DNA of 64,000 nt from Spirochaetia bacterium (GCA_021736475.1 JAIPFV010000003.1:4724-68723), one strand, 5' to 3'; counted from the stretch's first letter, positions 20,673 through 40,610 are shown. Made by a program: numbers and translations. Notes: generated from the sequence alone by a model not told the origin.

Positions 20673-21841
20673 AGCAAGCGGCAATTTTACTGGTCGATGA
20701 CGAACCGGAAATTCTCAACTCGGTATATCGCAGTATACGCAAATGGAGCATCCAGGCGGGGCTCCATATTCTTACTGTCGAATCGGCCGAGGCTGCCGAG
20801 CAAATCGTACAAAGTGAAGATTGGGAAGTGCGGATAACCATCACCGATCAGCGTATGCCGGGCAAGCAGGGCGACGAGTTTGTAGTCAGGCTTAGGGAGA
20901 TAGAGCCGGATGCTGTTCCAATTGTACTGACCGGCTATACTGATGCGGCGGATATCGAAAAACTGCTCAACAGCGAGATTTTTGCCTATATTCTGAAACC
21001 TTGGAATACGGAGCGACTGATACTGGAACTTTCAAAAGCTTTGAAAATGTATCATTTGAAGGTACGGGAACGCAAAGCCCGACAACATATCGAACAGGAA
21101 CTGAAGATGGGAGCTCTTTTTCAAAAGGCTCTTCAGCACAATGTAGTAACACCGCGTAATAAGGATATCGATTTCTTTGTAGACGGTCAGTGTGCCTCGA
21201 AGCTTAATTTCAGTGGGGATTATTATGACATTATTGAGTTGGACAATAACCGATATCTGGCACTAGTCGGAGATGTCGCCGGGCACGGGCTTAACACTGC
21301 TTTTATGGGTGGAATTTTGAAGTCGATAATCTATCCGGAATTCATAAAACCCTTTCTTGCCAGTACATTTTCCCCATCTCGATTTCTGCATGGACTGAAC
21401 TCGAGAATATTAGCTATTACTGAGAATTTGCCTGACATGCTGGTTTCCTTTAGTGCAGCACTAATTGATGTTCGAACCAGGACACTTAACTACTCCAACG
21501 CGGGATTGCCGCCAGCAGTAGTAGTGCGAGATGGAAAGGTCTCCATTTTAGAAAATCGAACCATGCCATTGGGAACTTCACCGAAACTTCAGTTTGAAGA
21601 ACGTAAGTTTGTTTTGGAAAAAGGCGATTGCTGTGTGTTCTATACCGACGGACTGCATCCGAGCGGCAATAGCGGTGAAGGTTTTACGGAACAGAATCTT
21701 TTTAGCGTGTTCTCGAATGCATTCAGCAGCTGTCACTCGGACGCCAGGTGTCATGAAACCGTATTTGCCCATACTAAAAAGCTGCTGCATACCGATTCAT
21801 TTGAGGATGATGTAACTCTGCTCTCCTGTGTATTGAAATAA
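20669..21841 (+). CDS. Response regulator fused to PP2C/SpoIIE-type phosphatase (RsbU-like)
   Basis: REC 'ILLVDDEPEIL...ITDQRMPGKQG...ILKPW'; PP2C 'FSGDYYDIIELDNNRYLALVGDVAGHGLNTAF', 'FYTDGL'. Confidence 0.8.
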   Translation: MKQAAILLVDDEPEILNSVYRSIRKWSIQAGLHILTVESAEAAEQIVQSEDWEVRITITDQRMPGKQGDEFVVRLREIEPDAVPIVLTGYTDAADIEKLLNSEIFAYILKPWNTERLILELSKALKMYHLKVRERKARQHIEQELKMGALFQKALQHNVVTPRNKDIDFFVDGQCASKLNFSGDYYDIIELDNNRYLALVGDVAGHGLNTAFMGGILKSIIYPEFIKPFLASTFSPSRFLHGLNSRILAITENLPDMLVSFSAALIDVRTRTLNYSNAGLPPAVVVRDGKVSILENRTMPLGTSPKLQFEERKFVLEKGDCCVFYTDGLHPSGNSGEGFTEQNLFSVFSNAFSSCHSDARCHETVFAHTKKLLHTDSFEDDVTLLSCVLK

Positions 21842-21844
21842 CAG

Positions 21845-23059
21845 TTAGGAGGCCCGCGGAAGACGCACTGTAAAACAGGTCGACTCTTGATCAGAGTGCA
21901 GAAAGATGTATCCTCCGAAGGAGTTAATTATTACCTGATGTACGGCAGTCAGGCCCAAACCGGTTCCCTGTCCGACCTCTTTTGTAGTAAAAAACGGATC
22001 GAATACTCTGTTCTGATGCTCTTTAGGAATAGCCGGGCCGTTGTTGATAATATCGCAATACACCCAGGTTTCATCTGATCTGGTGTGGATCCTCACTACC
22101 CCGGATTCTGATTTCTCAGCCGCTTCGATGGCATTGAAAAGCAGATTGTTGAACGCCTGAACCAGTTCCTTCATCGGGCCTTTTACAGGCGGTAACGAAT
22201 GGATATTTGTTTTCAGTCGAAGCGAGTCTCTTTCTGCTGCTCGGGTCAGCACGAGAGCTGTATGCAGAGCCTCGTCAACCAAAATTTCACCGTGTTTTTC
22301 TGTTTTTGGAGTTGTGAATATGCTTAAACTTCGAATAATTTCACTCATACGGGAAATTCCTGATTCCGTTTCCCGCCACAGCTCTTTTACATCACTATAA
22401 ATTTCTTCAATTCCATATTGTTCTTTCAATTTACCTATTGTTTCAGCATGTGCGGACATATCGCCCGCTTTCTTCTGTAGTAGTCCTTCGAGGGATTTTA
22501 TGTATTTCTCGAGTTCTTCGAAGTACTCTATACAGGTTTTTAGATTACCCTTTAGGAAACTGAGCGGATTATTCATCTCATGGGCCAGCCCGGCTGCCAG
22601 TGTACCAAGCGAGGCCATATTCTTCTCCTGAGCTAACTGACTGTGCATAGCGTGCAGCTTGGCATTTAAGTCCATAAGCTCCATATTTGTACTCATGATC
22701 TCGCCCTCAAGACGGACCCGCTGGGAGATATCGCGACCAATAATAGTTATTTTGTTCTTATCTGTGATGTGGCTGCTTTCAATTGCTACCGCTTGGTTAC
22801 CATCAATAGTCTTGTACATCACCTCGAATTCCCGTACTTCCGTTTCTTTGTAGAGACGTTCTACTAATACGCGCCAATCTTCAGGATAGCGGTAGAAGTT
22901 GACCAACTGTTTGCCTTGCAGTTGTTCGGCTGAATCGAGACCCAGAAAGATAGCTGCATTCTGGTTACAGTGGATTACAACACTCTCGGGATTTACAATG
23001 AAAACTGGTATTGGTAACCACTTGAGCCATTCAGAAAAATAAGCTGCTGAGTTTATCAC
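21845..23059 (-). CDS. Cytoplasmic PAS-domain sensor histidine kinase
   Basis: PAS region, H-box 'LAAGLAHEMNNPLSFL', 'NNGPAIP', 'GQGTGLGLTAVHQVI'; GTG start abuts the STAS gene stop. Confidence 0.88.
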   Translation of the reverse strand: MINSAAYFSEWLKWLPIPVFIVNPESVVIHCNQNAAIFLGLDSAEQLQGKQLVNFYRYPEDWRVLVERLYKETEVREFEVMYKTIDGNQAVAIESSHITDKNKITIIGRDISQRVRLEGEIMSTNMELMDLNAKLHAMHSQLAQEKNMASLGTLAAGLAHEMNNPLSFLKGNLKTCIEYFEELEKYIKSLEGLLQKKAGDMSAHAETIGKLKEQYGIEEIYSDVKELWRETESGISRMSEIIRSLSIFTTPKTEKHGEILVDEALHTALVLTRAAERDSLRLKTNIHSLPPVKGPMKELVQAFNNLLFNAIEAAEKSESGVVRIHTRSDETWVYCDIINNGPAIPKEHQNRVFDPFFTTKEVGQGTGLGLTAVHQVIINSFGGYIFLHSDQESTCFTVRLPRAS

Positions 23060-23464
23060 TTAATCTGCATCCTTCATCTCGTTATTCGTGCCATCGAGAA
23101 TTGGAAAATGCTTTAGAAACCCCAGCAGTGCAAGCACATCGGTTACTTTGTGCGGTACCTGGCTCAGGAAGAAATCAATACCTTTTGTTCTACATTTAAT
23201 AAGAATTGAGGTAAAACTTCCCACTCCGGTGGAGGAGATATAATCAATATTCCGGCAATTTACTACTATCCGTTCGGGCTGGTGATCGAGCTCATCGATT
23301 ACTTCGAACAGGCTAATAAACTCGTAGCTGTTGCGGGTGTCGAGGTCACCATTCAGGAACAAGGTAAGTGTGATAATCTGAGTTTCAGATGTTTCGTAGG
23401 CTATCGAAAGCCGGTTGTGTTGGGAATTGAATTGTTGTATCTCTTTTTCGAGTATATTGTTCAT
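23060..23464 (-). CDS. STAS-domain protein (anti-sigma-factor antagonist/SpoIIAA-like)
   Basis: 'LNGDLDTRNSYEF...VVNCRNIDYISSTGVGSF...IDFFLSQVPHKVTDVLALLGF'; start at ATG 23464 ('MNNILEKE') preferred over 23518. Confidence 0.75.
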   Translation of the reverse strand: MNNILEKEIQQFNSQHNRLSIAYETSETQIITLTLFLNGDLDTRNSYEFISLFEVIDELDHQPERIVVNCRNIDYISSTGVGSFTSILIKCRTKGIDFFLSQVPHKVTDVLALLGFLKHFPILDGTNNEMKDAD

Positions 23465-23796
23465 GGAATCCCTTATTATTTGTCTTCTTATTTTAAGGTG
23501 AAAAAAAAAAGACTGCAAGTAGTTTGCTGTTTAATCTAATAGTAGGTTGAATAGTATCCGTAATTAAGCTTGTCCTCCATGCCGAAAGCAAAAAAGGGCG
23601 TCTGGACCGTCACAATTCGGGCAAAATAAGTACTTGCGATTTTAAAGACTATGCGAGCCGGCGACTTGCAAAATAAAAGCCGGTTGAGTGAGACTATCAG
23701 AAAATTGCGGCCGTAAAGGCTTGAATCAGGTCTAAAAAAGGCCCATTGCACGGCAAATAACTCTTAAAAATATAAAAAGAGGGACATGTGCGGTTT

Positions 23797-24054: not shown

Positions 24055-26040
24055 ATGTTTTCACAAAAAAATCCTTATCAGGTTCTGGTTGTAGATGACG
24101 AGAAGGAGACCCTGCTCAGTATTCAGCGGGTGCTGCGTACAGAACCACAGATAGAGGTGCAAACCGCTGCCTCAGCCGACGATGCCTTCAGCGTGCTGAA
24201 AAAACGGCCTATACATGCCTTGCTGGTTGACTGGAGAATGCCGGGCGTTAACGGCGACGAGCTGTTGCGGCGGCTAAAACGGACTTATCCCAGCATTCCG
24301 GCCTGCATGTTAAGTGCCTGCGTCGACCCCCGAACGCTGGATAAAGTGCATAACGAAGGGCTTGTTATCGAATATCTGGCCAAGCCTTTCACGAACGATG
24401 AGCTGCGCAACACTGTCCGCCGTCTGGTCGGCGGGAGTGCAGGCAGCGCAAATAGAAGAGCCGGCGGCGCTGGCGCGGCAGCCGGTATCGATGCTCATGC
24501 CGGAGCCGATGTCAGCACTGGGGCTGCACAAGTCCAGAAGGGTGCTGCCGAGGTTGCGGTAATGCCTCGTGAAGTATACCCCGACCAAGCCCTGAAGTAT
24601 ATGCTGCATGATTCGTTGACGGCCCTCAATGCCGATTCCGGAACCGTGTATGCCGTGGAGGCGAAGCATGAAGGCGGATACGTGCTGGCGTCGTGTGTTA
24701 CGATCAACAGTTCCATTACCATAGACTTTAAGGCCCGTGAGGTGGCGCTGGACACTACCAGCATTCCCGGTTATGTGGCGCTTACCGGCCGGGCGCTTGC
24801 AATTCCCGATGTGTATGATATCGGCACCGATAAAAGTTATTCCTTTGATACCTACATCGACACTATCTACGGCTACCGTACAAAATCGATGCTCTGCATG
24901 CCGATTTTCGATAAAAATGAAATGGTGATCGGGCTCATCGAGGTTGTGAACCGTAAAAACGGTCAGGCCGTATTGGACAGCTACCGGCAGGTTCAGCAAT
25001 ACGTAAAGGCTTTTGACCGCTGGGCGTATTTCGACTTGCGGTCGATTGTCCGTATGGAGTCCTTCGTGCTCGAAAAACAACGGAATAACCGCTTTATACA
25101 TCGGCAGATGGGCGGTTACCAGGCCCCGCTGGTAGCCCTGCTGGCCGAGAGCAACACCGACGCGGCAATTCACGCGGAAAAGGTGGGACAGGTTGCCGCG
25201 GTTATTGCAGCGGGAATCGACAGTACGACGAATTGGCCGTTTGCATCGGAATTCTTTTCCGGGGAGCGCACAGATTTCGTGCGTAGTCTGGCGGTTATGA
25301 AGGAACTCGGAAAAATGTTTCTGCAGAACTCAGTGGTCAGGAAACGGAGCAAGTTGCTGACGCATCAGCGCCGGCAGCTTGATCTGCACATCAATTATGC
25401 CCAGAAGAGCATAGACATCAAGTTTATGAAGCGGGAACGGAATGTGGCTTTGCGGGTGTCCGACGATCAGCAGCGGCGTATGTACCTGTCGGAAATTGCC
25501 GATGAGCGCAATGCGGTGGTGAACAATATTCAAAGGGCCCGGTTAGTCCTGTTTTCGGCAATAGGGGTGCAGAACAGCCCCGGACGGGAACAGATTATGA
25601 ATGCAATAAAAACCCTCAACGAACTTGATCTCTCTGAAACCGGCGAGAACGGCTTAAAAGTGGTGCCCGATTATATTGCAGCCGAACTGCTGAACAACAA
25701 TAAGAGTATCGGAGCGCTGAACCAAAGGCTCGAAACACAAACTCCTATATTTGTATACGAGTCTCTCAACCGGCAGATGCAGAGCGGGAATACTCAGAGT
25801 GAGCAGCCGGATAGGCTTGAAGAACAGATTGTGTTAGTGGCCGAAAAGTTTGTGGTTATAAATTCGGTTCATAGTACGGCCTGCAGGCCGGGCGGACAGT
25901 CTTCCTATAGTAAGGCAATCCTGAAAATCATCAAGACACTCCGCGAGGATGCCCGGAACGGCTTGCTGAACGCTAATATTGTAGATGTGCTGTCGGAGGC
26001 TTTGCTGGATGGCACTATACGGCTTGATCTCTACACCTAA
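24055..26040 (+). CDS. Response regulator with GAF domain and a degenerate HD-GYP-like C-terminal region
   Basis: REC 'VLVVDDEKETL...LVDWRMPGVNG...YLAKPF'; Ala/Gly linker; GAF-like 'SIPGYVALTGRALAIPDVYD...SMLCMPIFD'; then 'IHAEKVGQVAAVIA' and 'MKELGKMF' where HD-GYP proteins have H..RV and HDIGK. Confidence 0.7.
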   Translation: MFSQKNPYQVLVVDDEKETLLSIQRVLRTEPQIEVQTAASADDAFSVLKKRPIHALLVDWRMPGVNGDELLRRLKRTYPSIPACMLSACVDPRTLDKVHNEGLVIEYLAKPFTNDELRNTVRRLVGGSAGSANRRAGGAGAAAGIDAHAGADVSTGAAQVQKGAAEVAVMPREVYPDQALKYMLHDSLTALNADSGTVYAVEAKHEGGYVLASCVTINSSITIDFKAREVALDTTSIPGYVALTGRALAIPDVYDIGTDKSYSFDTYIDTIYGYRTKSMLCMPIFDKNEMVIGLIEVVNRKNGQAVLDSYRQVQQYVKAFDRWAYFDLRSIVRMESFVLEKQRNNRFIHRQMGGYQAPLVALLAESNTDAAIHAEKVGQVAAVIAAGIDSTTNWPFASEFFSGERTDFVRSLAVMKELGKMFLQNSVVRKRSKLLTHQRRQLDLHINYAQKSIDIKFMKRERNVALRVSDDQQRRMYLSEIADERNAVVNNIQRARLVLFSAIGVQNSPGREQIMNAIKTLNELDLSETGENGLKVVPDYIAAELLNNNKSIGALNQRLETQTPIFVYESLNRQMQSGNTQSEQPDRLEEQIVLVAEKFVVINSVHSTACRPGGQSSYSKAILKIIKTLREDARNGLLNANIVDVLSEALLDGTIRLDLYT

Positions 26041-26063: not shown

Positions 26064-27440
26064 TTATTCGGGGTTGAAGTCCAGCCGTTTGAGCTTGCGG
26101 TGCAGAGTGGCCTCGGCAATCCCCAGCAGCTTGGCGGCTTGTTTCTTGTTGCCCCAGGTCTGATCGAGGGCCCGCTGGATTGCCTGCTGTTCATAGCTCT
26201 CGATCGAAAATTCATCGGATCGTCTTTCGGTAACTGCCGGCGAGTTGCGGACCGCCTCGGGAAGATCGATCATCTGGATTTGGGGCGGCTCGGCAAAGAC
26301 GATTGCCCGGCGAACAACGTTCTGCAGTTCGCGTACATTTCCTGGCCAGGCATACTGCAGCAGTCGTGTCATTGCGGAATCTTCAATTCTGGTTACTTCC
26401 GGGGAATCAGTCAGGTGAAGTGAAAGAAAGTGCTTGAGCAGCGGTTCTATATCTTCAGTTCTCTCTCTGAGCGCCGGTACGTTGATGGTAATGGTATTGA
26501 ACCGGTAGTACAGGTCTTCACGGAATTCGCCCTGTTCGACGGCTTGCTGCAGGTTGCGGTTGGTGGCAGCCAGTATACGTATGTTTACTGAAACCGGTGT
26601 AGTGGCACCGATTGGTCGCACCTCCTGCTCCTGTACCAGCCGCAGCAGTTTGGTTTGCAGTGCCAGCGGCAGCTCGCCGATTTCATCGAAAAAAACTGTA
26701 CCGCCGTCGGCCTCTTGGATTAGACCGTTGTGTGAATGAGTGGCGCCGGTAAATGAGCCTTTCCGGTATCCGAACAGTTCGCTTTCGATGACCGAACCGT
26801 TGATGGCCCCGCAGTCTACCACTGTAAAGGGGTTGTCCTTGCGTTCGCTATGGGCGTGGATCGCGCGAGCCACCAGCTCTTTGCCGGTGCCGGTTTCGCC
26901 CTGAATAAGCACATTCATGTCGGTGTGTCCCACGTTTACGATAGTTTTCTTGAGCCTGAGCATTGGCTCCGAGTTGCCTATTAGTCCGTCAAAGTGAAAA
27001 TGCTCGTTTGTCCGCCGCCGCAGGTCGGACATTTCCTGCTCCAGCTCCCACGTACGTTTTACCTGCGACACTTTGTTTACCAGCAGTTCGTTAGTAATCG
27101 GTTTTTCAATCAGATCTTTGGCTCCCTGTTTTATGGCCTTTACCGCGTCTCGGATGGTTGCGCGTCCGGTGACCATATATACTGGAATACCGGGATTGCG
27201 ATGCTGTATCATCTCCAGAACCTGGTGGCCATTGCAGCGGGGCATGCAGAGGTCAAGCAGAATGAGGTCCGGCGGAGTGTCGTTCAGTGCTCCGAGGGCT
27301 TGCTTGGCATCCTGGAAACACCTCAGGTTGTCTACTATCTTTCTAAGAGTGCGTTTATATACACTCAGACTTTCTTCTTCGTCATCAATACAGAATACGG
27401 TGAATCCGCTGTATATGTTTTCATTGCTTTTTTCTTTCAT
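26064..27440 (-). CDS. Sigma-54-dependent response regulator (NtrC family EBP)
   Basis: REC 'VFCIDDEEE...[11 protein letters not shown]'; '[17 protein letters not shown]', '[15 protein letters not shown]', '[12 protein letters not shown]'; HTH '[21 protein letters not shown]'. Confidence 0.92.
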
Positions 27441-27866: not shown

Positions 27867-27881
27867 TGGCACGTTACTTGC
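27867..27881 (+). promoter_or_regulatory. Sigma-54 promoter TGGCAC-N5-TTGC
   Basis: 'CTTGGCACGTTACTTGCT'; perfect -24 GG / -12 GC elements and spacing; about 195 nt upstream of ATG 28076. Confidence 0.7.
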
Positions 27882-28075: not shown

Positions 28076-28636
28076 ATGAAGATTCGAATAATTCACATAG
28101 CTCTCGTAGTTCTTTTCGTGTTCAGCTCTGTGGTCGTTGGGTTTGCAGACCCGCCTTCTTCGCTTAGCACCGAGGATTCGATCACTACCGATATCAGTCT
28201 GAGTGTCGAGCCGCAGATCATCGCCCACAAGGGATCTGACATCGTTATGAGCGTGCCTGCCCTCGATGCCTCCTCAGAAGAAGATGAGGGTGGAGCTCTG
28301 GCCTTTGGGTCGGGAAGCATCGGCTACTTTGACAGCAACGCACCGACGACCTTCTCCTTCGAGGCGAACGCGCTGAGCAACAGTGAAAGCGATGGCGACG
28401 ACGTGATGACCACCCGCTACGCGGCGAACTTCTCCGGCTACGACGGAAAAGAGGACGAAGGGTACGCGAGTGGTGACGTGAACAGCGCAAATCTCGATGA
28501 CCTTGACGGGTCTGTAAACATCACTCCCCGCAGCGGACGTATCGACGTAGCGCTCGATGTGGAAGCCGACGTGGAGTGGGGTGACGATGCAGGGCTTTAC
28601 GGCTCGCAGTTCGTCATGACCGCCACAGTCAACTAA
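28076..28636 (+). CDS. Sec-exported protein, paralogue A of an unrecognised family (candidate major structural subunit)
   Basis: GGAGGA RBS; signal peptide 'MKIRIIHIALVVLFVFSSVVVGFA'; shares 'G.G.(I/L)GYFDSN', 'TRY', 'D(V/I)EADV(E/D)W...Y...FV(M/L)TAT' blocks with 30533-31657 and 31662-32420. Confidence 0.75.
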   Translation: MKIRIIHIALVVLFVFSSVVVGFADPPSSLSTEDSITTDISLSVEPQIIAHKGSDIVMSVPALDASSEEDEGGALAFGSGSIGYFDSNAPTTFSFEANALSNSESDGDDVMTTRYAANFSGYDGKEDEGYASGDVNSANLDDLDGSVNITPRSGRIDVALDVEADVEWGDDAGLYGSQFVMTATVN

Positions 28637-28796
28637 GAGGTAGAGAGAAAGCATTTAGCTAAAAACGGACAGAGAGGAGGGGCCCGGGCCCATGCCGACC
28701 CGGGACTCCTCGAACCGATGCCGCCGACTGCAGTGGGGTTCCGTAGTTCGTTCCCATAAGGTACCTGGTAAAATGAGAAGAGCAAGAAGAGCGAAA

Positions 28797-28828
28797 GGCG
28801 CCCCTCAACGTGGGCGCCAATCGTTTTT
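28797..28828 (+). terminator. Rho-independent terminator candidate after paralogue A
   Basis: GGCGCCC-ctcaacgt-GGGCGCC (7-bp all-GC stem) followed by aatcgTTTTT. Confidence 0.5.
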
Positions 28829-28849
28829 CGTAGTGAGGAGAAAACACAC

Positions 28850-30463
28850 ATGAATAGCGTCTACGAGGCCATGACCGATGCTGTTTTCATTGCCGACATC
28901 GAAACAAAGAAGCTGCTCTTCTGCAATAGCCAAGCCGAGACAATGACTGGACGAAGCAGAGATGAGCTCATTGGCATGCAAGCGGAGGACCTGCACCCGA
29001 CACAATTTGCGGAGCCAATCCGGCAGGTATTCGAAGAGAGTAAGGTCAGACTTCCTTCGGTAGAAGATTCCGAAGTTCTCACCGCCAGCGGACGGCGAAT
29101 TCCCGTATTTATAAGCACCTCATTCATCAGATTCGAAGGTAGAGGGGCGTTGCTCGGCATATTCAGGGACATAAGCTCATGGAACGAGGCAGATCTCGAG
29201 CGGAGACGTTTGTGGGCTGCCATCGAGCAGCTCTCCGAGGCGGTGCTCATCACCGACGCCGAAGCCTCTATTATCTACGCAAATCATGCCTTTTTCCGCA
29301 TGACCGGTTACGGGGAGGAGGAAGTCATAGGAATGATTCCGGGCTTCTTGAACAGCGGCGAACAGAACCAAGAGACAGTTGAGGAGATGTGGAAAACTCT
29401 CAGGGCAGGCAGGAAGTGGAAGGGGGAGTTCGTCAACCGGAAGAAGGATGGAACGCACTACATCGACGAGACCGCTATTTCCCCGGTATTCGATCGGGGC
29501 GGAGAACTCGTCAACTACGTCTCGGTGAAACGGGATGTGACCGGCCGCAAAGCCGAGGAGGATCGCAGGAGATTAGAAAGAGAGGAAATGGAGGATGTGG
29601 TGGAGCTCCGGCTGCAAGAGCTCAGGGAGGCTTACGACACCATCACCCTGCAGGAGAAAATGGCCTCCCTAGGCCGCCTCACGGCGGGCATCGCTCACGA
29701 ACTGAACAACCCGCTGCAGTTGGTGAGGATGAATGCAGATATTCTCGCCTACCAGATCCGGGAGATGAAGAGCCTCTTCTCATCGTATCGGGATTATATT
29801 ATGGAACGTTCATGCCCGGATGCCACCTCTTCTCTGCCTGAGGATCTGCAGCGGCTGGAGGAGGAAAGCGATTTCGATACTCGAGATGAGGAGATGAGAA
29901 AGGCATACGAGGTATTGATGAATGGTGTGCAGAGGATGGAGCGAATTATATCGAACGTGCAGAAGACCTTCTCAATCGAGAAGACGAGCGAACAGCAGGA
30001 ATGGGATCTTAACATCGGTATACGTGAGATCGTCGAAATCCTCTACAACGAGTATAAGTACGGGACAAAAGTAGAGGTGTACAGTGAGGGGGTGCTTCCT
30101 CTGATGTGTAACCGGCAGGAAATACAGCAGGTACTGATAAGCCTCATGTCCAACGCTTTTGAGGCGATCCGGAGCATTGGAAAGAGCACGGGTACGGGGA
30201 GCGGAGAAATCGTCATTCGCAGTTGGAGCGGCGAAGAGACGGTCTCGTTCTCGATAAGCGACAACAGTTCCGGCATAGGGCCCGAAGAGCGGAAGAAGGT
30301 CTTCGAGCCGTTCTACACCACCCGCTCGCAGAAAAGTAACACAGGCTTCGGTTTGAGCCTTGTCTACGAGATCGTGGTTAACAGACACGGAGGCACCATA
30401 GCCTTCGAGAACTCGGAGAGTGGCGGAACGTTGGTAACGGTGAGCCTGCCGCGGGGTGTATAA
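28850..30463 (+). CDS. Cytoplasmic double-PAS sensor histidine kinase
   Basis: Two PAS modules ('IADIETKKLLFCNSQAETMTG', 'ITDAEASIIYANHAFFRMTGY...GKWKGEFVNRKKDGT'), H-box 'LTAGIAHELNNPLQ', 'DNSSGIGPE', 'GFGLSLVYEIV'; no TM segment. Confidence 0.9.
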   Translation: MNSVYEAMTDAVFIADIETKKLLFCNSQAETMTGRSRDELIGMQAEDLHPTQFAEPIRQVFEESKVRLPSVEDSEVLTASGRRIPVFISTSFIRFEGRGALLGIFRDISSWNEADLERRRLWAAIEQLSEAVLITDAEASIIYANHAFFRMTGYGEEEVIGMIPGFLNSGEQNQETVEEMWKTLRAGRKWKGEFVNRKKDGTHYIDETAISPVFDRGGELVNYVSVKRDVTGRKAEEDRRRLEREEMEDVVELRLQELREAYDTITLQEKMASLGRLTAGIAHELNNPLQLVRMNADILAYQIREMKSLFSSYRDYIMERSCPDATSSLPEDLQRLEEESDFDTRDEEMRKAYEVLMNGVQRMERIISNVQKTFSIEKTSEQQEWDLNIGIREIVEILYNEYKYGTKVEVYSEGVLPLMCNRQEIQQVLISLMSNAFEAIRSIGKSTGTGSGEIVIRSWSGEETVSFSISDNSSGIGPEERKKVFEPFYTTRSQKSNTGFGLSLVYEIVVNRHGGTIAFENSESGGTLVTVSLPRGV

Positions 30464-30493
30464 AATCTGTACAGCTTAAGCATACCCTTCGCT

Positions 30494-30508
30494 TGGCACA
30501 CTTATTGC
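30494..30508 (+). promoter_or_regulatory. Sigma-54 promoter TGGCAC-N5-TTGC
   Basis: 'CTTGGCACACTTATTGCAAT' lies about 25 nt upstream of ATG 30533; 18 nt are identical to the minus-strand promoter at 37133-37147. Confidence 0.7.
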
Positions 30509-30532
30509 AATAAGAATATTAAGGGATTAGTG

Positions 30533-31657
30533 ATGGAAAATATGAATACAGGAACGAACATACACCACGTACTGATGCACATACTCAATCTCTTTTTACT
30601 CCTCCCCCTCGCGCTCTCCGCTGGGGAAGTGACGGCGGGAATACGGATGGGATTACAGTCGGGAATCGTGGCGCATCCCACGGGGGAGGATATTGTAATG
30701 GAGGTTTCCCCGTTTACTAGCGCAGAGACGGATGTGACGGCCCGCGGTAACGGCTTTCTGGGCTACTTTGACAGCAATGTGCGCACCACTATCACTTACC
30801 AAGGCAACAGCCTGCATCACGGCGATGAGCCCCACACCGATGTAATGTCGACTCGCTACCACGTCCGTCTCTACGGACATGGCTCGGGGGATGTGAACTA
30901 CAGGAGCCCCACAGTGGAAGATGAGCGGATCGAATGGCTTCCGGGCTCGTCGGTAGTGGAACCGAATACGGGAAAAATCTACGTCGACCTCGAGGTGGAA
31001 GCGGATGTCGACTGGAGTCATGGCATAGGACAATATGAGGCGGTATTCGTGCTCACGGCTACTAAGAGCGGCGGAATGAGTGAGGAAGACATTGAACGGT
31101 ATAGCAGTGTCTTCAGTGAATCTAACCAGCCTCACGATGTGCTCATCGCCCCGGAGACCTCTCCGAATCTTTCCCTCTCCGAAGACGTGGAGATCATGAC
31201 TACCTTTATTGAGGAGACCGCCGGCTACCGGAACACGATCGGCTACTTCCTTTTCCCCGAGGAACCGTTGGTGGATATCGGGGAGATAGAGACGAGCTCG
31301 AAGGTACTCTATGAAAACGCCTCCATGGAAAATTCGGGGGAAGAGCTGATACCGGGAGACAGTAGAGACCTTGGCCTATTCGAATCGGAGTTTGACTTGG
31401 GATTCTGGATTGCCAGCGACGGCTATAAGAGGACGAACCCGGAGGTGTACTACAGTATCGATGAGTACAATGCAGACGGACTGCGGCACGTGTCGATTTT
31501 CTCGGACCTCGCACAGAATCGCATCGTCGTCGGATTCGAGGATCTTCCCGGAGGTGGCGACAAGGATTACAACGACGTGCTCATAGGGCTGGATATCTAC
31601 CCGTTTTCAGCTGTGGATCTCGACAACATACCCGACATATCGGAGCTAAGGGAGTGA
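30533..31657 (+). CDS. Sec-exported protein, paralogue B, with C-terminal DUF4114-like domain
   Basis: Signal 'LNLFLLLPLALSA'; family blocks 'GNGFLGYFDSN', 'VMSTRYHVRLYGHGSG', 'VDLEVEADVDWSHGIGQYEAVFVLTATKSG'; C-terminus 'VVGFEDLPGGGDKDYNDVLIGLD' is the DUF4114 signature. Confidence 0.8.
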   Translation: MENMNTGTNIHHVLMHILNLFLLLPLALSAGEVTAGIRMGLQSGIVAHPTGEDIVMEVSPFTSAETDVTARGNGFLGYFDSNVRTTITYQGNSLHHGDEPHTDVMSTRYHVRLYGHGSGDVNYRSPTVEDERIEWLPGSSVVEPNTGKIYVDLEVEADVDWSHGIGQYEAVFVLTATKSGGMSEEDIERYSSVFSESNQPHDVLIAPETSPNLSLSEDVEIMTTFIEETAGYRNTIGYFLFPEEPLVDIGEIETSSKVLYENASMENSGEELIPGDSRDLGLFESEFDLGFWIASDGYKRTNPEVYYSIDEYNADGLRHVSIFSDLAQNRIVVGFEDLPGGGDKDYNDVLIGLDIYPFSAVDLDNIPDISELRE

Positions 31658-31661
31658 GAGA

Positions 31662-32420
31662 ATGATAGACACGGGAACGAAGGGATGTTTTGTGTTGCTT
31701 TACAGCCTCATCCTCATCTTTGGCATACTCTTTGTCCTCCGCGGCGAGCAGGTGAAGACGGGCGTCCACATGGGAGTGCCCGCGGGTATCGTCGCGCATC
31801 CATCGGGAGAGGAGATCATCCTTCATTCGCCTCCACTGTCCGAGAGTGAAGAGGGTGAGGTGACAGCCAAGGGCGAAGGGTATATAGGCTACTTCGACAG
31901 CAATGCCTGCACCATCATCAGCTACGAGGCGAACTGCCTACACCATGGCAAAGATAAGGACAAGGAGGAGATGATCGACCTGCTTCCGACCCGCTACAGC
32001 GTGACCCTCTATGGGCACGGATCGTCGCCGATTCACTACCACAGCCCTACCGTATTGAAGGTGGAGAAGGAAACGCTTCCCGGCTCATCGGTTGTGGACC
32101 CTCATACGGGGAAGATCCACGCGGAGTTGGACATCGAGGCTGACGTAGACTGGAGTCACGACTCTGGAGAGTACGAGGCCGCCTTCGTTCTCACCGCCAC
32201 CGAGAGCGGAGGAATATGCACGGAGGAGATAGCCTACTACAGGAGCCGCTTCGAAGAGGGTCGTATACCCGTGGATCTGGTTAGATTCGCCACTCCAGAT
32301 AACGACAGCTATGTGCTCGATTCCGAAAGGGCATCCTTCGGAGGTGCAGCGGACGAGACGAACATCAAGAGCGAAATCGGCTACCGCCTCCCCGAAAGGC
32401 CGGAAGATGGCGGTGAGTAG
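31662..32420 (+). CDS. Sec-exported protein, paralogue C (B-like, ends where the DUF4114 domain of B begins)
   Basis: 'GEGYIGYFDSN', 'LLPTRYSVTLYGHGSS', 'AELDIEADVDWSHDSGEYEAAFVLTATESGG'; the tail 'SEIGYRLPERPED' aligns to 'NTIGYFLFPEEP' of B. Confidence 0.8.
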   Translation: MIDTGTKGCFVLLYSLILIFGILFVLRGEQVKTGVHMGVPAGIVAHPSGEEIILHSPPLSESEEGEVTAKGEGYIGYFDSNACTIISYEANCLHHGKDKDKEEMIDLLPTRYSVTLYGHGSSPIHYHSPTVLKVEKETLPGSSVVDPHTGKIHAELDIEADVDWSHDSGEYEAAFVLTATESGGICTEEIAYYRSRFEEGRIPVDLVRFATPDNDSYVLDSERASFGGAADETNIKSEIGYRLPERPEDGGE

Positions 32421-32517
32421 AATGATAAGCAGTGATACCGAGACAGTGAAAACGAAGGAGTTGGTAAGAAGAATGTACGCATTGATCAATTGCACAGAAT
32501 ATCGCATCGAAGAGACC

Positions 32518-33733: not shown

Positions 33734-35002
33734 ATGCGGGGTCGCTGCCTGCAATGTGCCCTCCGGTCCGGTCTCCGAGGCAGTCTTCCGATTGCACTGC
33801 TTGCGGCGATGCTGCTGTCAGGCTGTGCTACGCCGATGGAGCAAACCGTCGATACGCCCGATCTCGTGATCTCCCGGCGCTCTGCGGACTCGCCAGATCC
33901 TCTGAAGCAGGAGCTGGTAGCCCGAGGCGCAAAGGATTCGGAAAGGGAAGCGGGGCCGTCGGTCAGCGGCAACTACTTCGACACCGACCTGCGGGCGGTG
34001 CTAATGGAGCTTTCAATGAAGACCGGGATTAATATAATTCCCGACCAGACAGTCAGAGGCATGATTACTGTCAGCTTCGAAAAGATGCCCCTCGAGAAGG
34101 TCCTGCGCATGATCCTCTTTCCCGGGGGTTACTCATTCAAAAAGGAGGAGGGCTACTATCTCGTTGGCAGCGTCGACCCTAAGAATCCTCACACTTCCCG
34201 CCTCATTAGCACCGAGATGCTTCGCACCAACTACGACGCGAAGGAGGTTATCGAGAGCCTTCCTCAGATGTATCGCCCCTTCGTCACCATGGCCGACGGC
34301 ATAGCAAACCGCCTCGTCATAAATGCCCCGGAGCATGTGATGTGGAAAATCAAGGAGTCCATAGTAGCCATGGACGAGCCGAGGAAACTTATCTCCATCG
34401 ACGTGGTCGTGGCGGAGATGAGTTACTCGCAGGCGAACTCACTCGGGGTGGACTGGGACGATCCCATTGTCTCTGTCGACGGGGCAGGCGGTCTTTTCAT
34501 CGAGAACGGCGGCGGTGCGTTCACCGGCAGCCTTACCTCAGAGTTTGTCCTCTCACTCTCGGCGATGTCGAAGAACGGGAGTATCGAAATACGGGCCAAT
34601 CCGAAGATCGTCACGCTCGACGGAGAGACTGCTAAGGTGCAGATCATCGACGAGTATTACATCCCCATCATCGGTAACATAGATGACCTCTCTTCGAGCG
34701 ATGTGAGGAAGATCGACGCCGGCATCAGCCTCATCGTGCGGCCAAGGTTGACGCGGAACGGTGAGATCCTCATCGACATAGAACCTTCGGTGAGCAACCA
34801 GAGCGGCGTATCCATGCAGAGCGCTATGCCCATAATCAACACTCGTCAGGCTAAGACGACCGTCAAGCTCAAGAGTGGAGAAACCTTCATCCTCGGCGGA
34901 CTAATTCAGGAGAGCACACAAAACGAACGCAAGAATGCCGCCCGTAGCACCGCGCAAAGCAAGAAGGAGCTGGTGATATTTATTACCCCCCGGGTTCTGT
35001 GA
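33734..35002 (+). CDS. Secretin-family outer-membrane channel, lipoprotein, short form
   Basis: Lipobox 'LLSGCATP'; N0/STN-like 'NYFDTDLRAVLMELSMKTGINIIPDQTVRGMITVSFEKMPLEKVLRMIL'; secretin domain 'IEIRANPKIVTLDGETAKVQI', 'INTRQAKTTVKLKSGETFILGGLIQ', 'ELVIFITPRVL'. Confidence 0.88.
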   Translation: MRGRCLQCALRSGLRGSLPIALLAAMLLSGCATPMEQTVDTPDLVISRRSADSPDPLKQELVARGAKDSEREAGPSVSGNYFDTDLRAVLMELSMKTGINIIPDQTVRGMITVSFEKMPLEKVLRMILFPGGYSFKKEEGYYLVGSVDPKNPHTSRLISTEMLRTNYDAKEVIESLPQMYRPFVTMADGIANRLVINAPEHVMWKIKESIVAMDEPRKLISIDVVVAEMSYSQANSLGVDWDDPIVSVDGAGGLFIENGGGAFTGSLTSEFVLSLSAMSKNGSIEIRANPKIVTLDGETAKVQIIDEYYIPIIGNIDDLSSSDVRKIDAGISLIVRPRLTRNGEILIDIEPSVSNQSGVSMQSAMPIINTRQAKTTVKLKSGETFILGGLIQESTQNERKNAARSTAQSKKELVIFITPRVL

Positions 35003-36508
35003 CTAATCCAGCCCGTAGTCGCGCATCTTCTTGTAGAGGGTCGATCGGGTAATCCCGAGTATTTCTGCAGCTCGTGCCTTGTTGAGACCTGTGATCTCCA
35101 GAATATGTTGGATGTGCCGCTTCTCGACCTCTCTCATGCTGAGCTCGACGGTGTCGGAGAATTCTGCCTCAGATGCCTTTTCACCGCCGCCTATTCTCTC
35201 CGCTTCCGGATTACCTGATGTGTCCTCGTAACCCAGGGGAACCCGGTAGCCCCTGGTCGTCTCTTCGGGGTCGAAGAGATTTTCTGTGTCGATGACATCG
35301 GAATCGCTTAGGTAGTAGGCTTTCTCCACGATGTTCTGCAGTTGCCGAATGTTGCCCGGCCAGCCATTGCTGCTTCGTTTTAGCTTCTCCAATGACACGG
35401 GTGAAATTGACCTTGTAAGCCCGTTGTTTTTTTTGGCTAGTTTGAGGAGGAACATCGATATCAACAGGGAGAAATCGTCGCCCCGCTCACGCAGGGGAGG
35501 AACGAAAAGGGTGAAGACCTGCAGCCGGAAGTAGAGGTCTGCCCGGAATCGCCTCTCCTCGACGGCTTTCCAGAGGTCGATGTTTGAGGCGGCAATGATG
35601 CGCACATCGGCGCTGCGGGTCACCGTGCTGCCTACCCGCGAGTAGGTCCCCTCCTGGAGGAAACGCAGCAGGCGAGTCTGCATCGCCGGCGTCAGCTCGG
35701 CCACCTCGTCGAGAAAGACCGTCCCGCCGTCCGAGGCCTCGAAGACCCCCTTGGCGGTGTCTACCGCCCCGGTAAAGGATCCCTTCTCGTGGCCGAAGAG
35801 GTGGCTGTCGATAAGGGACTCCTGAATCGCCCCGCAGTTGACGGCGGTGAAGGTCATGTCGCTGCGATTGCTGCGGTGGTAGATTGCGTGGGCAACCAGT
35901 TCCTTTCCCGTGCCCGTCTCTCCCTGGATGAGCACCGGGGCTGAGGTCGGGGCGATCTTCAGGATCTGCCGGTAGAGCCGATGCATCGCCGGACTCTCGC
36001 CTACGAAGAGGTCGAAGTGGAACTGGAGTCCCTCGTCCCATACCGCCGGTACAGGTGCCTCTGCCGGCTCCTTCCTTCGCAGCCTGGCTATTTCGATAAG
36101 CTCATCAACGGTGGAGATGAGGCCCTGCTGGTCCACCGGTTTCTGTATGACCCGCACGGCGGAAGTGCTGTTTATGAGCTCGATGACGAGGTCGAGATTC
36201 ATGTAGGCCGAGAGCATGGCGCAGACCGTTTCGGGGTACAGCTCCTTCACCTTCTTAAGCAGCGACTCGCCATTCTCTCCAGGCATGTTCTGGTCGGTAA
36301 TGAGCACGTCGATGCGCTGCGCCTCGAGAGTGGAAAGTGCCTCTTCGCTACTATGGGCAGTAAATAGCTCGATGGAAGGAGTATTCCTGAAGAGCATTTG
36401 TATCGTGGTGAGGAAATCGATCTCGTCATCGACGAAGAGCAACTGTGTGGCAGCCTGCTGCTGCTTTTTATTAGCAGTCGCCTGAGGCGAATTCTCTGCG
36501 TGGTCCAT
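35003..36508 (-). CDS. Sigma-54-dependent response regulator (NtrC family EBP)
   Basis: REC 'LLFVDDEIDFL...LITDQNMPGENG'; '[17 protein letters not shown]', 'DSHLFGHEKGSFTGA', 'WPGNIRQLQNIV'; HTH 'ARAAEILGITRSTLYKKMRDYGL'. Confidence 0.92.
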   Translation of the reverse strand: MDHAENSPQATANKKQQQAATQLLFVDDEIDFLTTIQMLFRNTPSIELFTAHSSEEALSTLEAQRIDVLITDQNMPGENGESLLKKVKELYPETVCAMLSAYMNLDLVIELINSTSAVRVIQKPVDQQGLISTVDELIEIARLRRKEPAEAPVPAVWDEGLQFHFDLFVGESPAMHRLYRQILKIAPTSAPVLIQGETGTGKELVAHAIYHRSNRSDMTFTAVNCGAIQESLIDSHLFGHEKGSFTGAVDTAKGVFEASDGGTVFLDEVAELTPAMQTRLLRFLQEGTYSRVGSTVTRSADVRIIAASNIDLWKAVEERRFRADLYFRLQVFTLFVPPLRERGDDFSLLISMFLLKLAKKNNGLTRSISPVSLEKLKRSSNGWPGNIRQLQNIVEKAYYLSDSDVIDTENLFDPEETTRGYRVPLGYEDTSGNPEAERIGGGEKASEAEFSDTVELSMREVEKRHIQHILEITGLNKARAAEILGITRSTLYKKMRDYGLD

Positions 36509-36558
36509 TTGCTTATCCTCTTACGTGTATTTGCATTTGTACATGCAGGAAACAATTA

Positions 36559-36573
36559 GCAAGTACTGTGCCA
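36559..36573 (-). promoter_or_regulatory. Sigma-54 promoter TGGCAC-N5-TTGC (minus strand)
   Basis: The reverse complement reads 'CTTGGCACAGTACTTGCT'; it lies about 50 nt upstream of the EBP ATG at 36508. Confidence 0.65.
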
Positions 36574-36717
36574 AGTGAACCATTTTCGAGCCAAGAAAAG
36601 CCGTCTGTGACTAAACCTGTATACCTCTCCGGGCTTTCTGAGGTGGTGTGCGAAGGAGCCCAGCCGGTTTCTCTCTCCAGTGCGGCTATCAAAATGATAG
36701 AATAACTCAAGTTAGTA

Positions 36718-37086
36718 TCAATTTGAAAAACTCCGGCGCCTAGGCAAACGTTGAACCTGCGGCTTACAAGCAGCACATAGGAGAGGACCACCGAGGCCAT
36801 GAGATTTCGCCGGAAGCGGTAGCGAACGTCCATCGAGGCGTAGCGGCGCAGCCAGGTTCCGCACGAAGTCGATAGGCTCCTCATGCAGCTCCCGGTAACT
36901 TTGCGTGAGCTCACGGGCCAGGTCAAAGACCGCATCCCGAACAAACTCGATTTCCCTCTCAGTCCCAGGGCCCTGACCGACCACATTGTCGTCCCCGCCT
37001 GCCTCGTCCGCCGCAGCGGTCAGAACCATATCCGAAAACGCGAATATAAAGAACAGCAGCATCGCCGTAATCCAGAAGTTTTTCAT
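36718..37086 (-). CDS. Small exported protein, unknown function
   Basis: ATG 37086 preceded by a GGAGG RBS; 'MKNFWITAMLLFFIFAFSDMVLTAAA' signal-like N-terminus; sits directly downstream of the promoter at 37133-37147. The C-terminal third is low-complexity, so the 3' end is uncertain. Confidence 0.45.
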   Translation of the reverse strand: MKNFWITAMLLFFIFAFSDMVLTAAADEAGGDDNVVGQGPGTEREIEFVRDAVFDLARELTQSYRELHEEPIDFVRNLAAPLRLDGRSLPLPAKSHGLGGPLLCAACKPQVQRLPRRRSFSN

Positions 37087-37132: not shown

Positions 37133-37147
37133 GCAATAAGTGTGCCA
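37133..37147 (-). promoter_or_regulatory. Sigma-54 promoter TGGCAC-N5-TTGC (minus strand)
   Basis: The reverse complement reads 'TGGCACACTTATTGCAAT', identical over 18 nt to the plus-strand promoter at 30494. Confidence 0.65.
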
Positions 37148-37402: not shown

Positions 37403-37632
37403 TATACAGGGATAGTACATCGAACCGGGCGTCGGCAGAGTGTGTTTCGGCCGCCTGAGCAACGAACCGGTTTTTTTATGCGCATGAGCGGCGCCGCCGC
37501 CCGTGTAGCCGTAATGCCGTCGTGAGCGATCAAAACGATCGCCGCAGGCGGAATGGGAGTGCTGTGCGCTCACCGCAGTCCTGCTCTCATCACTTTTTCA
37601 ATTACAAAAAAACCGGAGGAAGCACTACCACA

Positions 37633-38622
37633 ATGAGCGGAAAAGTATACAGGAAAAGAACAAAAAAAGTTGCCCTGGTCGGCGTTGGAAGAATATCCAA
37701 TCGTCACATAGAGGCCATAGCGTCCGAACCCGGGGTAGAAGTAACCCTGGTATGCGACACCTACGAGGATCTGGCTCGAAAGAAGGCGGGAGAACTCGGG
37801 GTTCCCTACATCACCGACTACCGGCAGATAAGCAAGGTGGCGCCGGAAGTCGACATCGCGGCGGTGCTCACCCCTTCGGGAAATCACCCTACCCATGCAG
37901 CGGAGATCGCCGAGACGACTGATGTGCCGTACATCCTCCTGGAGAAACCCATAAGCCTCACCCTGCGGGAGGCATACGACCTGTTCAACCGGATCGACAG
38001 GGCAGGGAAGGTTCTCCTTCCCGTGTTTCAGAACCGCTACAACCTTCTCGTCTCCTACATAAAGCAGCTCATCGACAGCGGTGTTCTCGGGACGATCTAC
38101 CAGTTCAACTGTAACGTCTTCTGGAACAGGAACAACGGGTACTTTCGCAACAGCTGGCACGGTACTCGGGAGCTCGACGGCGGGGTGCTCTACACCCAGG
38201 CTAGCCATTACGTCGACATGCTCCACTTTTTTTTCGGCGAGCTGGTCGAGAGCAAGGGACTCTGCTCGTCGCTGCGGGGCATGGATGTGCACGACACCGT
38301 CTCGGCGGTCTGCAGGTTTGCCGGCGGTACGGTCGGCTCCCTCAACGCAACCGTCAGCGTGTTCCGAGAGAACTATCTCACCGAGTTCACCCTCATCGCC
38401 GAGAAGGGGACCATTCGCCTCTCGGGAACGAACCTCAACACCATTGCGAACTGGGACGTGGCGGGGATAGAGAAGCCGGACCTGGATTTTTCCATCAACC
38501 ATCAATACGGCCTGGGCCACAACACACTCTACTCCTACATCGCCGGAGAGAAGTGGGCAAAGTTTCCCACACGGCAAGAGATCATATCGGGAATACGGAT
38601 GATGGAGCAGCTGAGCTATTAA
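37633..38622 (+). CDS. wbpB: Gfo/Idh/MocA oxidoreductase, WbpB-like UDP-GlcNAcA 3-dehydrogenase
   Basis: ATG 37633 after GGAGG; 'VALVGVGRISNRH', 'EKPISLTL', 'VFQNRYN', 'WHGTRELDGGVLYTQASHYVDML' parallel the WbpB motifs. Confidence 0.8.
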   Translation: MSGKVYRKRTKKVALVGVGRISNRHIEAIASEPGVEVTLVCDTYEDLARKKAGELGVPYITDYRQISKVAPEVDIAAVLTPSGNHPTHAAEIAETTDVPYILLEKPISLTLREAYDLFNRIDRAGKVLLPVFQNRYNLLVSYIKQLIDSGVLGTIYQFNCNVFWNRNNGYFRNSWHGTRELDGGVLYTQASHYVDMLHFFFGELVESKGLCSSLRGMDVHDTVSAVCRFAGGTVGSLNATVSVFRENYLTEFTLIAEKGTIRLSGTNLNTIANWDVAGIEKPDLDFSINHQYGLGHNTLYSYIAGEKWAKFPTRQEIISGIRMMEQLSY

Positions 38623-38675
38623 ACGTATCGCCGTACAGGCAGGTCGGCCACAACACAAAGGGAGGTGGATACAAT

Positions 38676-40371: not shown

Positions 40372-40610
40372 TGAAGAAAAACGTATTATTACATCTGGAT
40401 GAGGAAACCTTAGAGATCGCCTTGCAATTCGCCGAGAGCCACGGGATAAGCCTCAGCGACTACGTGGAGCTGCTTATCGAGGAGTCCGTGACTGTGAGAC
40501 GCAGCAACGAACTGTGGATAAAGGGAACGATAGCCAGGATGCAGGCCCGGGAGATACTGAAGGACATGGATCACTACGATGAAGAGCAGGACGAGTATGG
40601 ACCGATATAA
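40371..40610 (+). CDS. Small hypothetical protein, ribbon-helix-helix-like N-terminus
   Basis: 79-aa ORF; ATG overlaps the wbpD-like stop (TAATG); 'VLLHLDEETLEIALQFAESHGISLSDYVELLIEE' resembles CopG/RHH antitoxin-type folds. Confidence 0.4.
   Translation: MKKNVLLHLDEETLEIALQFAESHGISLSDYVELLIEESVTVRRSNELWIKGTIARMQAREILKDMDHYDEEQDEYGPI

Follow-up and report, generated by a model that had tools for sequence, protein, structure and literature searches.

A sigma-54-controlled gene cassette with its own short secretin in a spirochaete: a probable diderm counterpart of the WxL surface clusters

In this study, we analyzed a 64,000-nt stretch of DNA from a Spirochaetia bacterium (GCA_021736475.1, JAIPFV010000003.1:4724-68723; hereafter the window, with positions counted from its first letter), in which an earlier note had pointed out a family of three exported proteins, here named A, B and C, between positions 28076 and 32420. 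These proteins are probably the cargo of a self-contained, sigma-54-controlled cassette for surface display or assembly, which would combine Sec export with passage through a secretin and would be the diderm counterpart of the WxL clusters. The decisive context lies just outside the coordinates given for the family and was overlooked by the earlier note; it consists of an exported partner protein (P4), a dedicated short secretin and sigma-54 control. What we file as new here is a WxL/DUF916-type surface cluster fitted to a diderm envelope, with a secretin of its own and a cargo domain that has no family entry.

In Lactobacillales, Listeria and Enterococcus, a WxL/Csc cluster comprises a small WxL protein, a large WxL protein and a DUF916-DUF3324 protein termed WxLIP (PMC1534035, PMC9772566, PMC10599100). 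The small acidic protein consists of the shared domain of about 180 amino acids (aa) alone, the large paralogue bears adhesion domains that target carbohydrates or the host, and a second small copy is sometimes present (PMC9772566, PMC10599100). According to an AlphaFold2 prediction, the WxL beta-sandwich is completed by a hairpin strand from DUF916 (PMC10599100), and about 91% of the known WxL proteins come from Firmicutes (PMC9772566, PMC10599100). The cassette in the window resembles these clusters in that A is small and acidic and contains the shared domain only, B joins this domain to a lectin domain, C is a second copy, and all members are Sec-exported, the partner P4 being a predicted multi-immunoglobulin (multi-Ig) protein whose N-terminal domain is DUF916-like at the level of the family consensus. 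Moreover, a distant relative of the cassette (locus L022, described below) has the same layout of small protein, adhesin-type paralogue and membrane-anchored partner (PMC9772566, PMC10599100). It is the partner P4 that points to the poorly understood WxL/Csc type of cluster, and away from curli, TasA and the chaperone-usher pili.

The paralogous proteins A, B and C

All three genes are intact open reading frames (ORFs) on the plus strand, with starts (28076, 30533 and 31662) taken from the source's own gene calls. A (28076-28636) encodes 186 aa, B (30533-31657) encodes 374 aa (375 aa if read from the GTG at 30530) and C (31662-32420) encodes 252 aa. Ribosome-binding sites precede A (GGAGGA, 6-7 nt before ATG 28076) and C (AGGGAG, 8 nt before its ATG), and ordinary Sec-type signal peptides are present at the N-termini of all three proteins. 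Pairwise comparison gave 40% identity over 150 aa for A and B (E 2e-28), 47% over 249 aa for B and C (E 3e-67) and 39% over 157 aa for A and C (E 4e-31); judged by these alignments, the paralogy of the three is far beyond chance. The intact ORFs, signal peptides and pairwise E-values (2e-28 to 3e-67) thus bear out the three-member exported family of the earlier note. Every sequence block that it had quoted was found, collinear, in A, B and C, and its statement that B is nearer to C than to A agrees with the identities above. A consists of a signal peptide followed by a single acidic domain of 162 aa, predicted to be a beta-sandwich; the acidity that had been noticed is pronounced, since mature A (162 aa) has an isoelectric point of about 4.05, with 32 acidic and 5 basic residues. 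A is a candidate bulk component. In B, the signal peptide is followed by the shared beta-sandwich domain (about residues 44-180), a linker and a C-terminal DUF4114 domain.

The family had been described as unrecognised, and profile searching placed its shared domain in no well-characterised family. Profile and single-protein searches of Pfam and of the PDB sequences returned zero matches to the domain, and the one NCBIfam match, LiaG, lay far below threshold (16 bits against a cutoff of 285). A profile of A, B and C, run against 1.84 billion representative proteins, recovered six relatives only. One was C itself; the others were a single B-like protein, two A-like proteins and a pair of distant proteins of about 200 aa. 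When one genome was scanned for each prokaryotic species, the domain turned up at two loci, both in Spirochaetales metagenome-assembled genomes.

An AlphaFold2 model of B, built from an eight-sequence alignment, shows a confident beta-sandwich of about nine strands at residues ~44-180 (predicted local distance difference test, pLDDT, ~80-90), whereas the DUF4114 part is poor and residues 28-43, which include a conserved N-terminal strand, are left unplaced with low confidence. On the basis of this model, the fold class of the shared domain would be a beta-sandwich, perhaps jelly-roll-like. Structural comparison had been suggested as a check on the family; it yielded the beta-sandwich of the B model, but the Foldseek matches were weak and generic and included no pilins. 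They comprised viral jelly rolls, phage lambda gpJ, the FedF lectin domain, CBM61 and MAM, and TasA was absent from the top 50. Such generic jelly-roll, lectin and carbohydrate-binding (CBM) matches are evidence for no family, and a family assignment from them was dropped.

Two terminal features of the domain deserve attention. Directly after the signal peptide lies an amphipathic strand with alternating hydrophobic residues, which is among the best conserved blocks in remote relatives and whose alternating pattern is kept in the spirochaete A family. That this strand is conserved and yet unplaced in the monomer model fits an intermolecular role. At the other end, the C-terminal strand 'DAGxYxxxhxhT' is one that we take to resemble the last strand of pilins of the chaperone-usher type.

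B is distinguished by DUF4114 (PF13448), which the earlier note had already recognised and for which the Pfam match, above threshold at 43.5 bits (cutoff 27; E 6e-11), spans residues 290-354; no Pfam match was obtained for A or C. The Asp-rich calcium-binding motif of DUF4114, GGGDKDYND, is kept in B and in the B orthologues. DUF4114 has been described as a calcium-dependent sugar-binding module in PilY1.1 of Myxococcus (PMC9109919), and in an Acanthamoeba adhesin it was shown to be the domain that binds mannose (PMC11934332). After DUF4114, the last ~20 residues of B form a tail, PFSA(V/L)DL(D/S)NIPD(I/V)(S/N)(E/D)L (window 31590-31654), which is conserved in all three lineages; it could belong to the lectin fold or serve in docking or sorting.

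C was found in none of the three orthologous loci, L001, L002 and L008, and in a small tree it falls within the B clade, where its branch position relative to the B of the window was not resolved. The identity of 47% between B and C implies that the duplication behind C is old. C runs through the B-type linker and ends with IGYRLPERPEDGGE and the stop codon opposite 'IGYFLFPEEP' of B (about residues 236-245 of the 374-aa form). The earlier claim that C stops where B enters DUF4114 therefore holds for the start of the C-terminal beta region of B, but not for the Pfam match, which begins ~45 residues later. Similarly, C is a B-type paralogue without the lectin domain, as the earlier note had described it, but no remnant is left in the C-P4 spacer (32421-32517): the search of these 97 nt for similarity to the lectin domain was negative, and the idea of a relic there was rejected. 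The length of 97 nt presupposes the P4 start at ATG 32518 that its orthologues favour; with the source's start at 32473 it is 52 nt. The spacer opens with a near-repeat of the B/C junction, GTGAG(T)AGAATGATA; the B-stop/C-start junction GTGAGAGAATGATA (31647-31668) is nearly repeated at the C stop as GTGAGTAGAATGATA (32412-32430). This near-repeat is marginal, its score being reached by 5 of 500 shuffles, and may be a scar of the tandem duplication that made C.

P4, the short secretin and related loci

Downstream of C lies P4 (32518-33732, plus strand; alternative start 32473), an exported protein of about 375-400 aa that is predicted to be all-beta with three Ig-like domains. The P4 of the window has a signal peptide, and neither a membrane anchor nor a hydrophobic C-terminus. 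BLASTP puts the identity of its orthologues in L001, L002 and L008 at 54-59% (55-57% in a MAFFT alignment), only four close relatives were found in 5.8 billion proteins, and NCBIfam gave no match. A search of the PDB sequences with the A/B/C profile, the P4 profiles and the small-protein consensus returned nothing beyond a marginal match to 2qsv, an Ig-like protein. When members of the P4 family were searched singly, four of eight matched PF06030 (DUF916, now WxLIP_PGBD) below threshold (best E 7.6e-5), and four of eight likewise matched an ASH/PapD-like Ig family below threshold. The P4 consensus exceeded the PF06030 cutoff of 27.3 bits, with 34.2 bits for all eight members and 41.5 bits for the five non-spirochaete members, and the match covers positions 20-120 of the 121-position hidden Markov model (HMM) at the N-terminal domain of P4. 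By this profile evidence, P4 appears to be related to DUF916 at the family level. The AlphaFold2 model of P4 has a mean pLDDT of 51, which is low confidence; it is all-beta with three sandwich domains, and Foldseek matched it to tandem ASH/PapD-like Ig repeats, RbmA, 2qsv and CfaE, as well as to 9fxs_C, a chain of a type 1 pilus assembly complex whose identity is unchecked.

Immediately after P4, at 33734-35002 (plus strand), a lipoprotein secretin of 422 aa is encoded (lipobox LLSG-C; Pfam Secretin E 2.8e-28). Its layout comprises an N0/STN-like domain, one N domain and a C-terminal secretin domain (PF00263); the N0 and STN matches are below threshold, and Secretin_N is present in relatives. 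It falls under every NCBIfam equivalog cutoff for PilQ, GspD, SctC and MshL, the best models being PilQ (116 against a cutoff of 284) and GspD (112 against 351). About fifty relatives were collected, all short (400-450 aa), at 30-34% identity. In size and domain count (N0, one N domain and the secretin domain, ~420 aa), the protein resembles phage pIV. To our knowledge, secretins are known only within large ATP-driven machines, such as type II and type III secretion, type IV pili and phage export. Neither the window ORFs scanned nor the flanks of L008 and L019 yielded an ATPase of type II or type IV systems, a platform protein or a prepilin peptidase.

The combination of an A-like gene, a B-like gene with DUF4114, P4, the secretin and a sigma-54 activator recurs in the window, L001, L002 and L008, with different flanks otherwise. 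Beyond these loci, five of six inspected contexts of short secretins (L009/L010, L011, L012, L013 and L015) have a P4-like gene immediately upstream of the secretin, preceded by two or three small exported proteins without a Pfam match. The P4-like proteins match the P4 of the window by BLASTP with E 1e-42 (L011), 1e-10 (L009 and L012) or more weakly (L015 and L013). A metagenome scan with spirochaete P4 patterns found nothing; a P4-seeded metagenome scan gave eight more loci, four of which (L016, L017, L019 and L022) were examined. In the three longer loci examined in detail, L016, L017 and L019, a lipoprotein secretin directly follows the P4-like gene and small proteins precede it (3/3); the contig of L019 is 746 kb long, and its cassette sits between housekeeping genes, those for a proton pyrophosphatase and trigger factor. 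In addition, the gene for the distant A relative P0005 directly follows that of a short secretin of the same clade, which shares 44% identity with the secretin of L011.

The small proteins of these loci were compared by hhalign after removal of the signal peptides. The A family aligned over its full length with the three small proteins of L011 (probability 93.6%, E 2e-7) and, collinearly over 142 columns, with seven small proteins from L011, L016, L017 and L019 (probability 95.9%, E 6e-9). Landmarks common to A and these remote proteins are the N-terminal amphipathic strand after the signal peptide, (S/A)N(A/C)P(T/F), P-H-x-G-x-(I/V) and, as the final C-terminal strand of the protein, W...DAGxYxxxhxhT. 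The small proteins of L009, L012, L015 and L013 are paralogous among themselves (hhalign E 1e-7 to 3e-24) and were rejected as A homologues for want of a significant link. Since the small proteins of some loci are thus unlinked to A, the cargo seems either to diverge fast or to be swapped, with P4 and the secretin as the constant part. In two of these loci, an extra gene follows the secretin (L013 8269-9936 and L015 8249-9076), the product of which ends in the manner of an outer-membrane beta-barrel (...GFRFNF and ...GLAFYF). One of the two encodes an STN domain, and both are absent from the spirochaete loci; the products are possible additional outer-membrane partners.

Locus L022 (SDBU01000519.1, 5594-9611), flanked by two-component regulators, is a relative of the cassette in monoderm style and differs from the others in having no secretin. 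It encodes a 169-aa small protein, a 513-aa large paralogue that begins with CBM96 and repeats the domain of the 169-aa protein at its C-terminus, and a P4-like protein that matches the family HMM with E 1e-27 and terminates in a transmembrane helix. The small protein showed no significant link to A and was not accepted as a homologue. L022 may be an evolutionary bridge to the WxL clusters.

Sigma-54 control and the genomic neighbourhood

A is preceded by a sigma-54 promoter, TGGCACGTTACTTGC (27867-27881, plus strand), a perfect TGGCAC-N5-TTGC located 195 nt before the start codon, and a second perfect match to the consensus, TGGCACACTTATTGC (30494-30508, plus strand), would drive B, C, P4 and the secretin. 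The window holds six perfect sigma-54 sites (27867, 30494, 36559 and 37133, the latter two on the minus strand, 37388 and 54795), each upstream of a gene, against a chance expectation of about 0.1 (rough estimate). After A there is an intrinsic terminator (28797-28828, plus strand), a GC-rich hairpin GGCGCCC-loop-GGGCGCC followed by a T-run. The private promoter and terminator that the earlier note had assigned to A were therefore recovered. Its description of A as monocistronic is correct for this genome, but not for the three relatives, where the A-B spacing is 86-89 nt. There, the A-like gene is preceded at 153-173 nt by a sigma-54 site, and neither a terminator nor a second promoter was found between A and B, so that a terminator as a feature of the relatives was dropped. 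This spacing implies that the ancestral unit was one operon, A-B-P4-secretin. The window has gained, between A and B, a cytoplasmic sensor kinase with a PAS-PAS-HisKA-HATPase arrangement in Pfam (28850-30463, plus strand), as well as the second promoter and the extra copy C; the kinase is found at this place only in this genome and is absent there in L001, L002 and L008.

Divergent from A, a sigma-54 response regulator (26064-27440, minus strand) with REC, AAA+ sigma-54 activator and Fis-type helix-turn-helix domains is encoded (Pfam Sigma54_activat E 5e-68), which is 44-45% identical to the activators that flank the cassettes of L002 and L008. A second sigma-54-dependent response regulator (35003-36508, minus strand) is convergent with the secretin and has a sigma-54 promoter of its own (36559-36573, minus strand), and a third activator of this type lies at 16186-17559. 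Taken together, the window looks like a local sigma-54 regulon joining the cassette, a regulator, a small exported protein and a polysaccharide cluster.

The polysaccharide biosynthesis cluster (37522-52725) stands behind the sigma-54 promoter at 37388. It contains genes for a GFO/IDH oxidoreductase, a DegT aminotransferase, a hexapeptide acetyltransferase, a UDP-sugar dehydrogenase, a Wzx-type flippase, a Wzy-like polymerase, GT1/GT4 glycosyltransferases, PGA_cap, an ATP-grasp protein and DUF354. The GC content of 35-43% at 44-54 kb, against 52-59% around it, suggests that part of the cluster was horizontally acquired. It may supply the ligand of the lectin domain of B. The small exported protein is a 122-aa ORF (36718-37086, minus strand; MKNFWITAMLL...) with a signal-peptide-like N-terminus, no Pfam match and its own perfect sigma-54 promoter (37133-37147, minus strand); an overlapping ORF in another frame (36513-36986) makes this call uncertain.

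A conserved signalling block was also observed near the cassette in the window (18031-23518), L002 (9060-13615) and L001 (1-5004), with genes for an NMT1-like binding protein, a HAMP histidine kinase, a response regulator and a REC-SpoIIE phosphatase. L001 has a different, unclassified periplasmic binding protein, and the window adds a STAS protein and a PAS kinase. The block hints at partner-switching control upstream of the sigma-54 regulators. Just upstream of the divergent sigma-54 regulator, the window encodes a 661-aa REC-GAF protein (24055-26040), the C-terminal region of which (~350 aa) has no Pfam match. L001 carries the same histidine kinase twice (1200-3056 and 6402-7562, identical in the C-terminal 386 aa), likely an assembly repeat or a recent duplication, which is irrelevant to the cassette.

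Known systems, alternative explanations and significance

In the mechanism that we propose, A, B, C and P4 would each be exported by Sec to the periplasm, as indicated by the signal peptides seen in their sequences. The acidic beta-sandwich proteins would be received there by soluble P4, a role suggested by the conserved gene linkage and by the predictions for WxLIP. The short lipoprotein secretin would then carry the cargo across the outer membrane, given its strict adjacency and the lack of any other outer-membrane component. In the surface product, A, being small, presumably abundant and equipped with its own promoter, would form the base or bulk, B would present its calcium-dependent DUF4114 lectin to a glycan, possibly the exopolysaccharide of the cell itself, and C would be a lineage-specific, B-derived variant without the lectin. 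Because no ATPase is encoded in or near the cassette, export would use the energy of folding or assembly, as in the chaperone-usher or curli systems.

Several comparisons help to delimit the cassette. Unlike the WxL clusters of monoderm bacteria, which attach to peptidoglycan, it belongs to a diderm spirochaete and carries a secretin in its operon; it also has no LPXTG protein, stands under sigma-54, and its shared domain is devoid of detectable WxL motifs. With chaperone-usher systems (Fim, Pap and Csu) it shares Sec export, a predicted periplasmic Ig-fold partner, a small subunit together with a lectin adhesin, the lack of an ATPase, and in A, B and C the N-terminal amphipathic strand and a C-terminal G-x-Y...T strand. 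However, its outer-membrane component is a secretin, the subunit fold is predicted to be larger and jelly-roll-like, and Pfam found no Usher (PF00577), PapD (PF00345/PF02753), Fimbrial or SCPU match in A, B, C, P4 or the neighbours. An outer-membrane channel of the secretin family is common to the cassette and the secretin machines (type II secretion, type IV/Tad pili and phage pIV), but the cassette has no ATPase, platform, pseudopilins, prepilin peptidase or pilotin, and its cargo bears ordinary signal peptides. Jelly-roll-like beta-sandwich subunits and a conserved N-terminal strand recall TasA and the archaeal bundling pili, and a fibre made by the cassette would likewise be an extracellular one, for matrix or adhesion, that assembles without ATP; in contrast, those systems have neither a secretin nor a DUF916-like partner, Pfam gave no match to Peptidase_M73 (TasA) or CsgA repeats in the cassette, and a CsgG-like gene is not present in it. 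These Pfam tests agree with the earlier failure to match the family to pilins, chaperone-usher subunits, TasA or curli. Our literature searches turned up no paper in which bacterial secretins are connected with WxL/DUF916, and none on orphan secretins or on a minimal secretin cassette of this kind.

A number of observations weigh against the proposed display cassette and its kinship with WxL clusters. We infer localisation, export through the secretin and the interaction of P4 with its cargo from gene linkage, and an inner-membrane machine encoded elsewhere in the genome is possible, the view being that of a 64-kb window. In one of the six inspected contexts (L014), the short secretin stands without a cassette. 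The P4 of the window itself gave no DUF916 match at E<=10 and no ASH/PapD-like match, the low confidence of the P4 model means that its Foldseek matches show a generic tandem Ig fold only, and the matches of the B model to the PDB were weak, generic beta-sandwiches (E ~1e-3). PF13731 (WxL) had no match at E<=10 among A, B, C, 15 relatives and four family consensuses. The shared domain is N-terminal in B and C-terminal in the large WxL proteins, and the P4 of the window has a third Ig-like domain in place of both DUF3324 and the transmembrane helix, with no PF11797 (DUF3324) match.

The alternative that survives best is a true pilus or fibre, a serious possibility although we consider it clearly the less likely one. 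According to this model, A would polymerise by N-terminal strand donation, B would provide a lectin tip, C would act as adaptor or terminator, P4 would be a periplasmic chaperone that donates a strand and the secretin would replace the usher; the major versus minor or tip subunit division of the earlier note is compatible with the data. Strand donation would explain why the alternating N-terminal strand is conserved and unplaced in the monomer model, and the presumed likeness of 'DAGxYxxxhxhT' to the last strand of chaperone-usher pilins would suit it as well. The separate strong promoter and the terminator of A would permit subunit excess here, but in the relatives A simply stands first in the operon. 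Among the matches of the low-confidence P4 model are PapD-like/ASH Ig repeats, CfaE and 9fxs_C (the chain with unchecked identity), whereas the shared domain itself was matched by Foldseek to jelly-roll, lectin and CBM folds and to neither pilins nor TasA, and Pfam returned no Fimbrial, PapD, Usher, SCPU or Peptidase_M73 matches. The strand of WxLIP that is predicted by AlphaFold2 to complete the WxL sandwich (PMC10599100) offers a further precedent for such a role.

It is unlikely, by comparison, that A, B and C are soluble proteins, let out via the secretin into the medium or the biofilm matrix to cross-link the exopolysaccharide of the neighbouring cluster in the manner of Vibrio RbmA, Bap1 and RbmC, with P4 as a co-secreted scaffold or adaptor. 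The lectin domain of B, the high acidity of A, B and C together with their lack of an anchor motif, the presence of RbmA among the matches of the P4 model, and a polysaccharide cluster with its own sigma-54 promoter beginning 2.4 kb downstream (37388) would all be in keeping with it. Nevertheless, this cluster is not kept beside the cassette in L001, L002, L008 or L019, and the strict pairing of P4 with the secretin across phyla suggests a part of a machine rather than cargo.

That A, B and C are monomeric residents of the periplasm, such as glycan-binding or stress proteins, and never leave it is very improbable: Sec signal peptides are all that is directly visible, and sequence cannot prove a passage across the outer membrane, but the linkage to a dedicated secretin is conserved, the lectin domain is typical of pilus tips and surface adhesins, and the monoderm relative L022 has the layout of a membrane-anchored surface cluster. 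Least probable of all is that the secretin belongs to a type II or type IV system encoded elsewhere and stands here by accident, because its best NCBIfam scores, although against the PilQ and GspD models, are far under the equivalog cutoffs (116 vs 284; 112 vs 351), the adjacency to a P4-like gene recurs in >10 independent loci of divergent lineages, and A, B and C carry ordinary Sec signal peptides instead of prepilin-type leaders.

We thus return to the display cassette, the product of which we infer to be a lectin-bearing surface structure. A bolder form of this proposal, somewhat more doubtful than the pilus model yet ahead of the matrix proteins, is that several uncultured diderm lineages possess a hitherto unrecognised, ATP-independent pathway of partner plus secretin, which would build a lectin-tipped strand-exchange fibre from beta-sandwich subunits and would be ancestral to the WxL/DUF916 clusters, these having lost the secretin and gained an anchor. 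As the cassette has only four genes, it should be testable by transfer to a laboratory host. The shared domain of A, B and C, being without a family entry, is a candidate for a new Pfam family, one that has a clear genomic signature. If the proposal is true, the four-gene unit, whose short secretin has as its only companions Sec-exported beta-sandwich proteins and a DUF916-like Ig protein, would represent a novel, very compact way of crossing the outer membrane. It would also provide the first mechanistic handle on the clusters of the DUF916/WxL type, the function of which is still mostly predicted, and would extend these clusters from Firmicutes to diderm bacteria.

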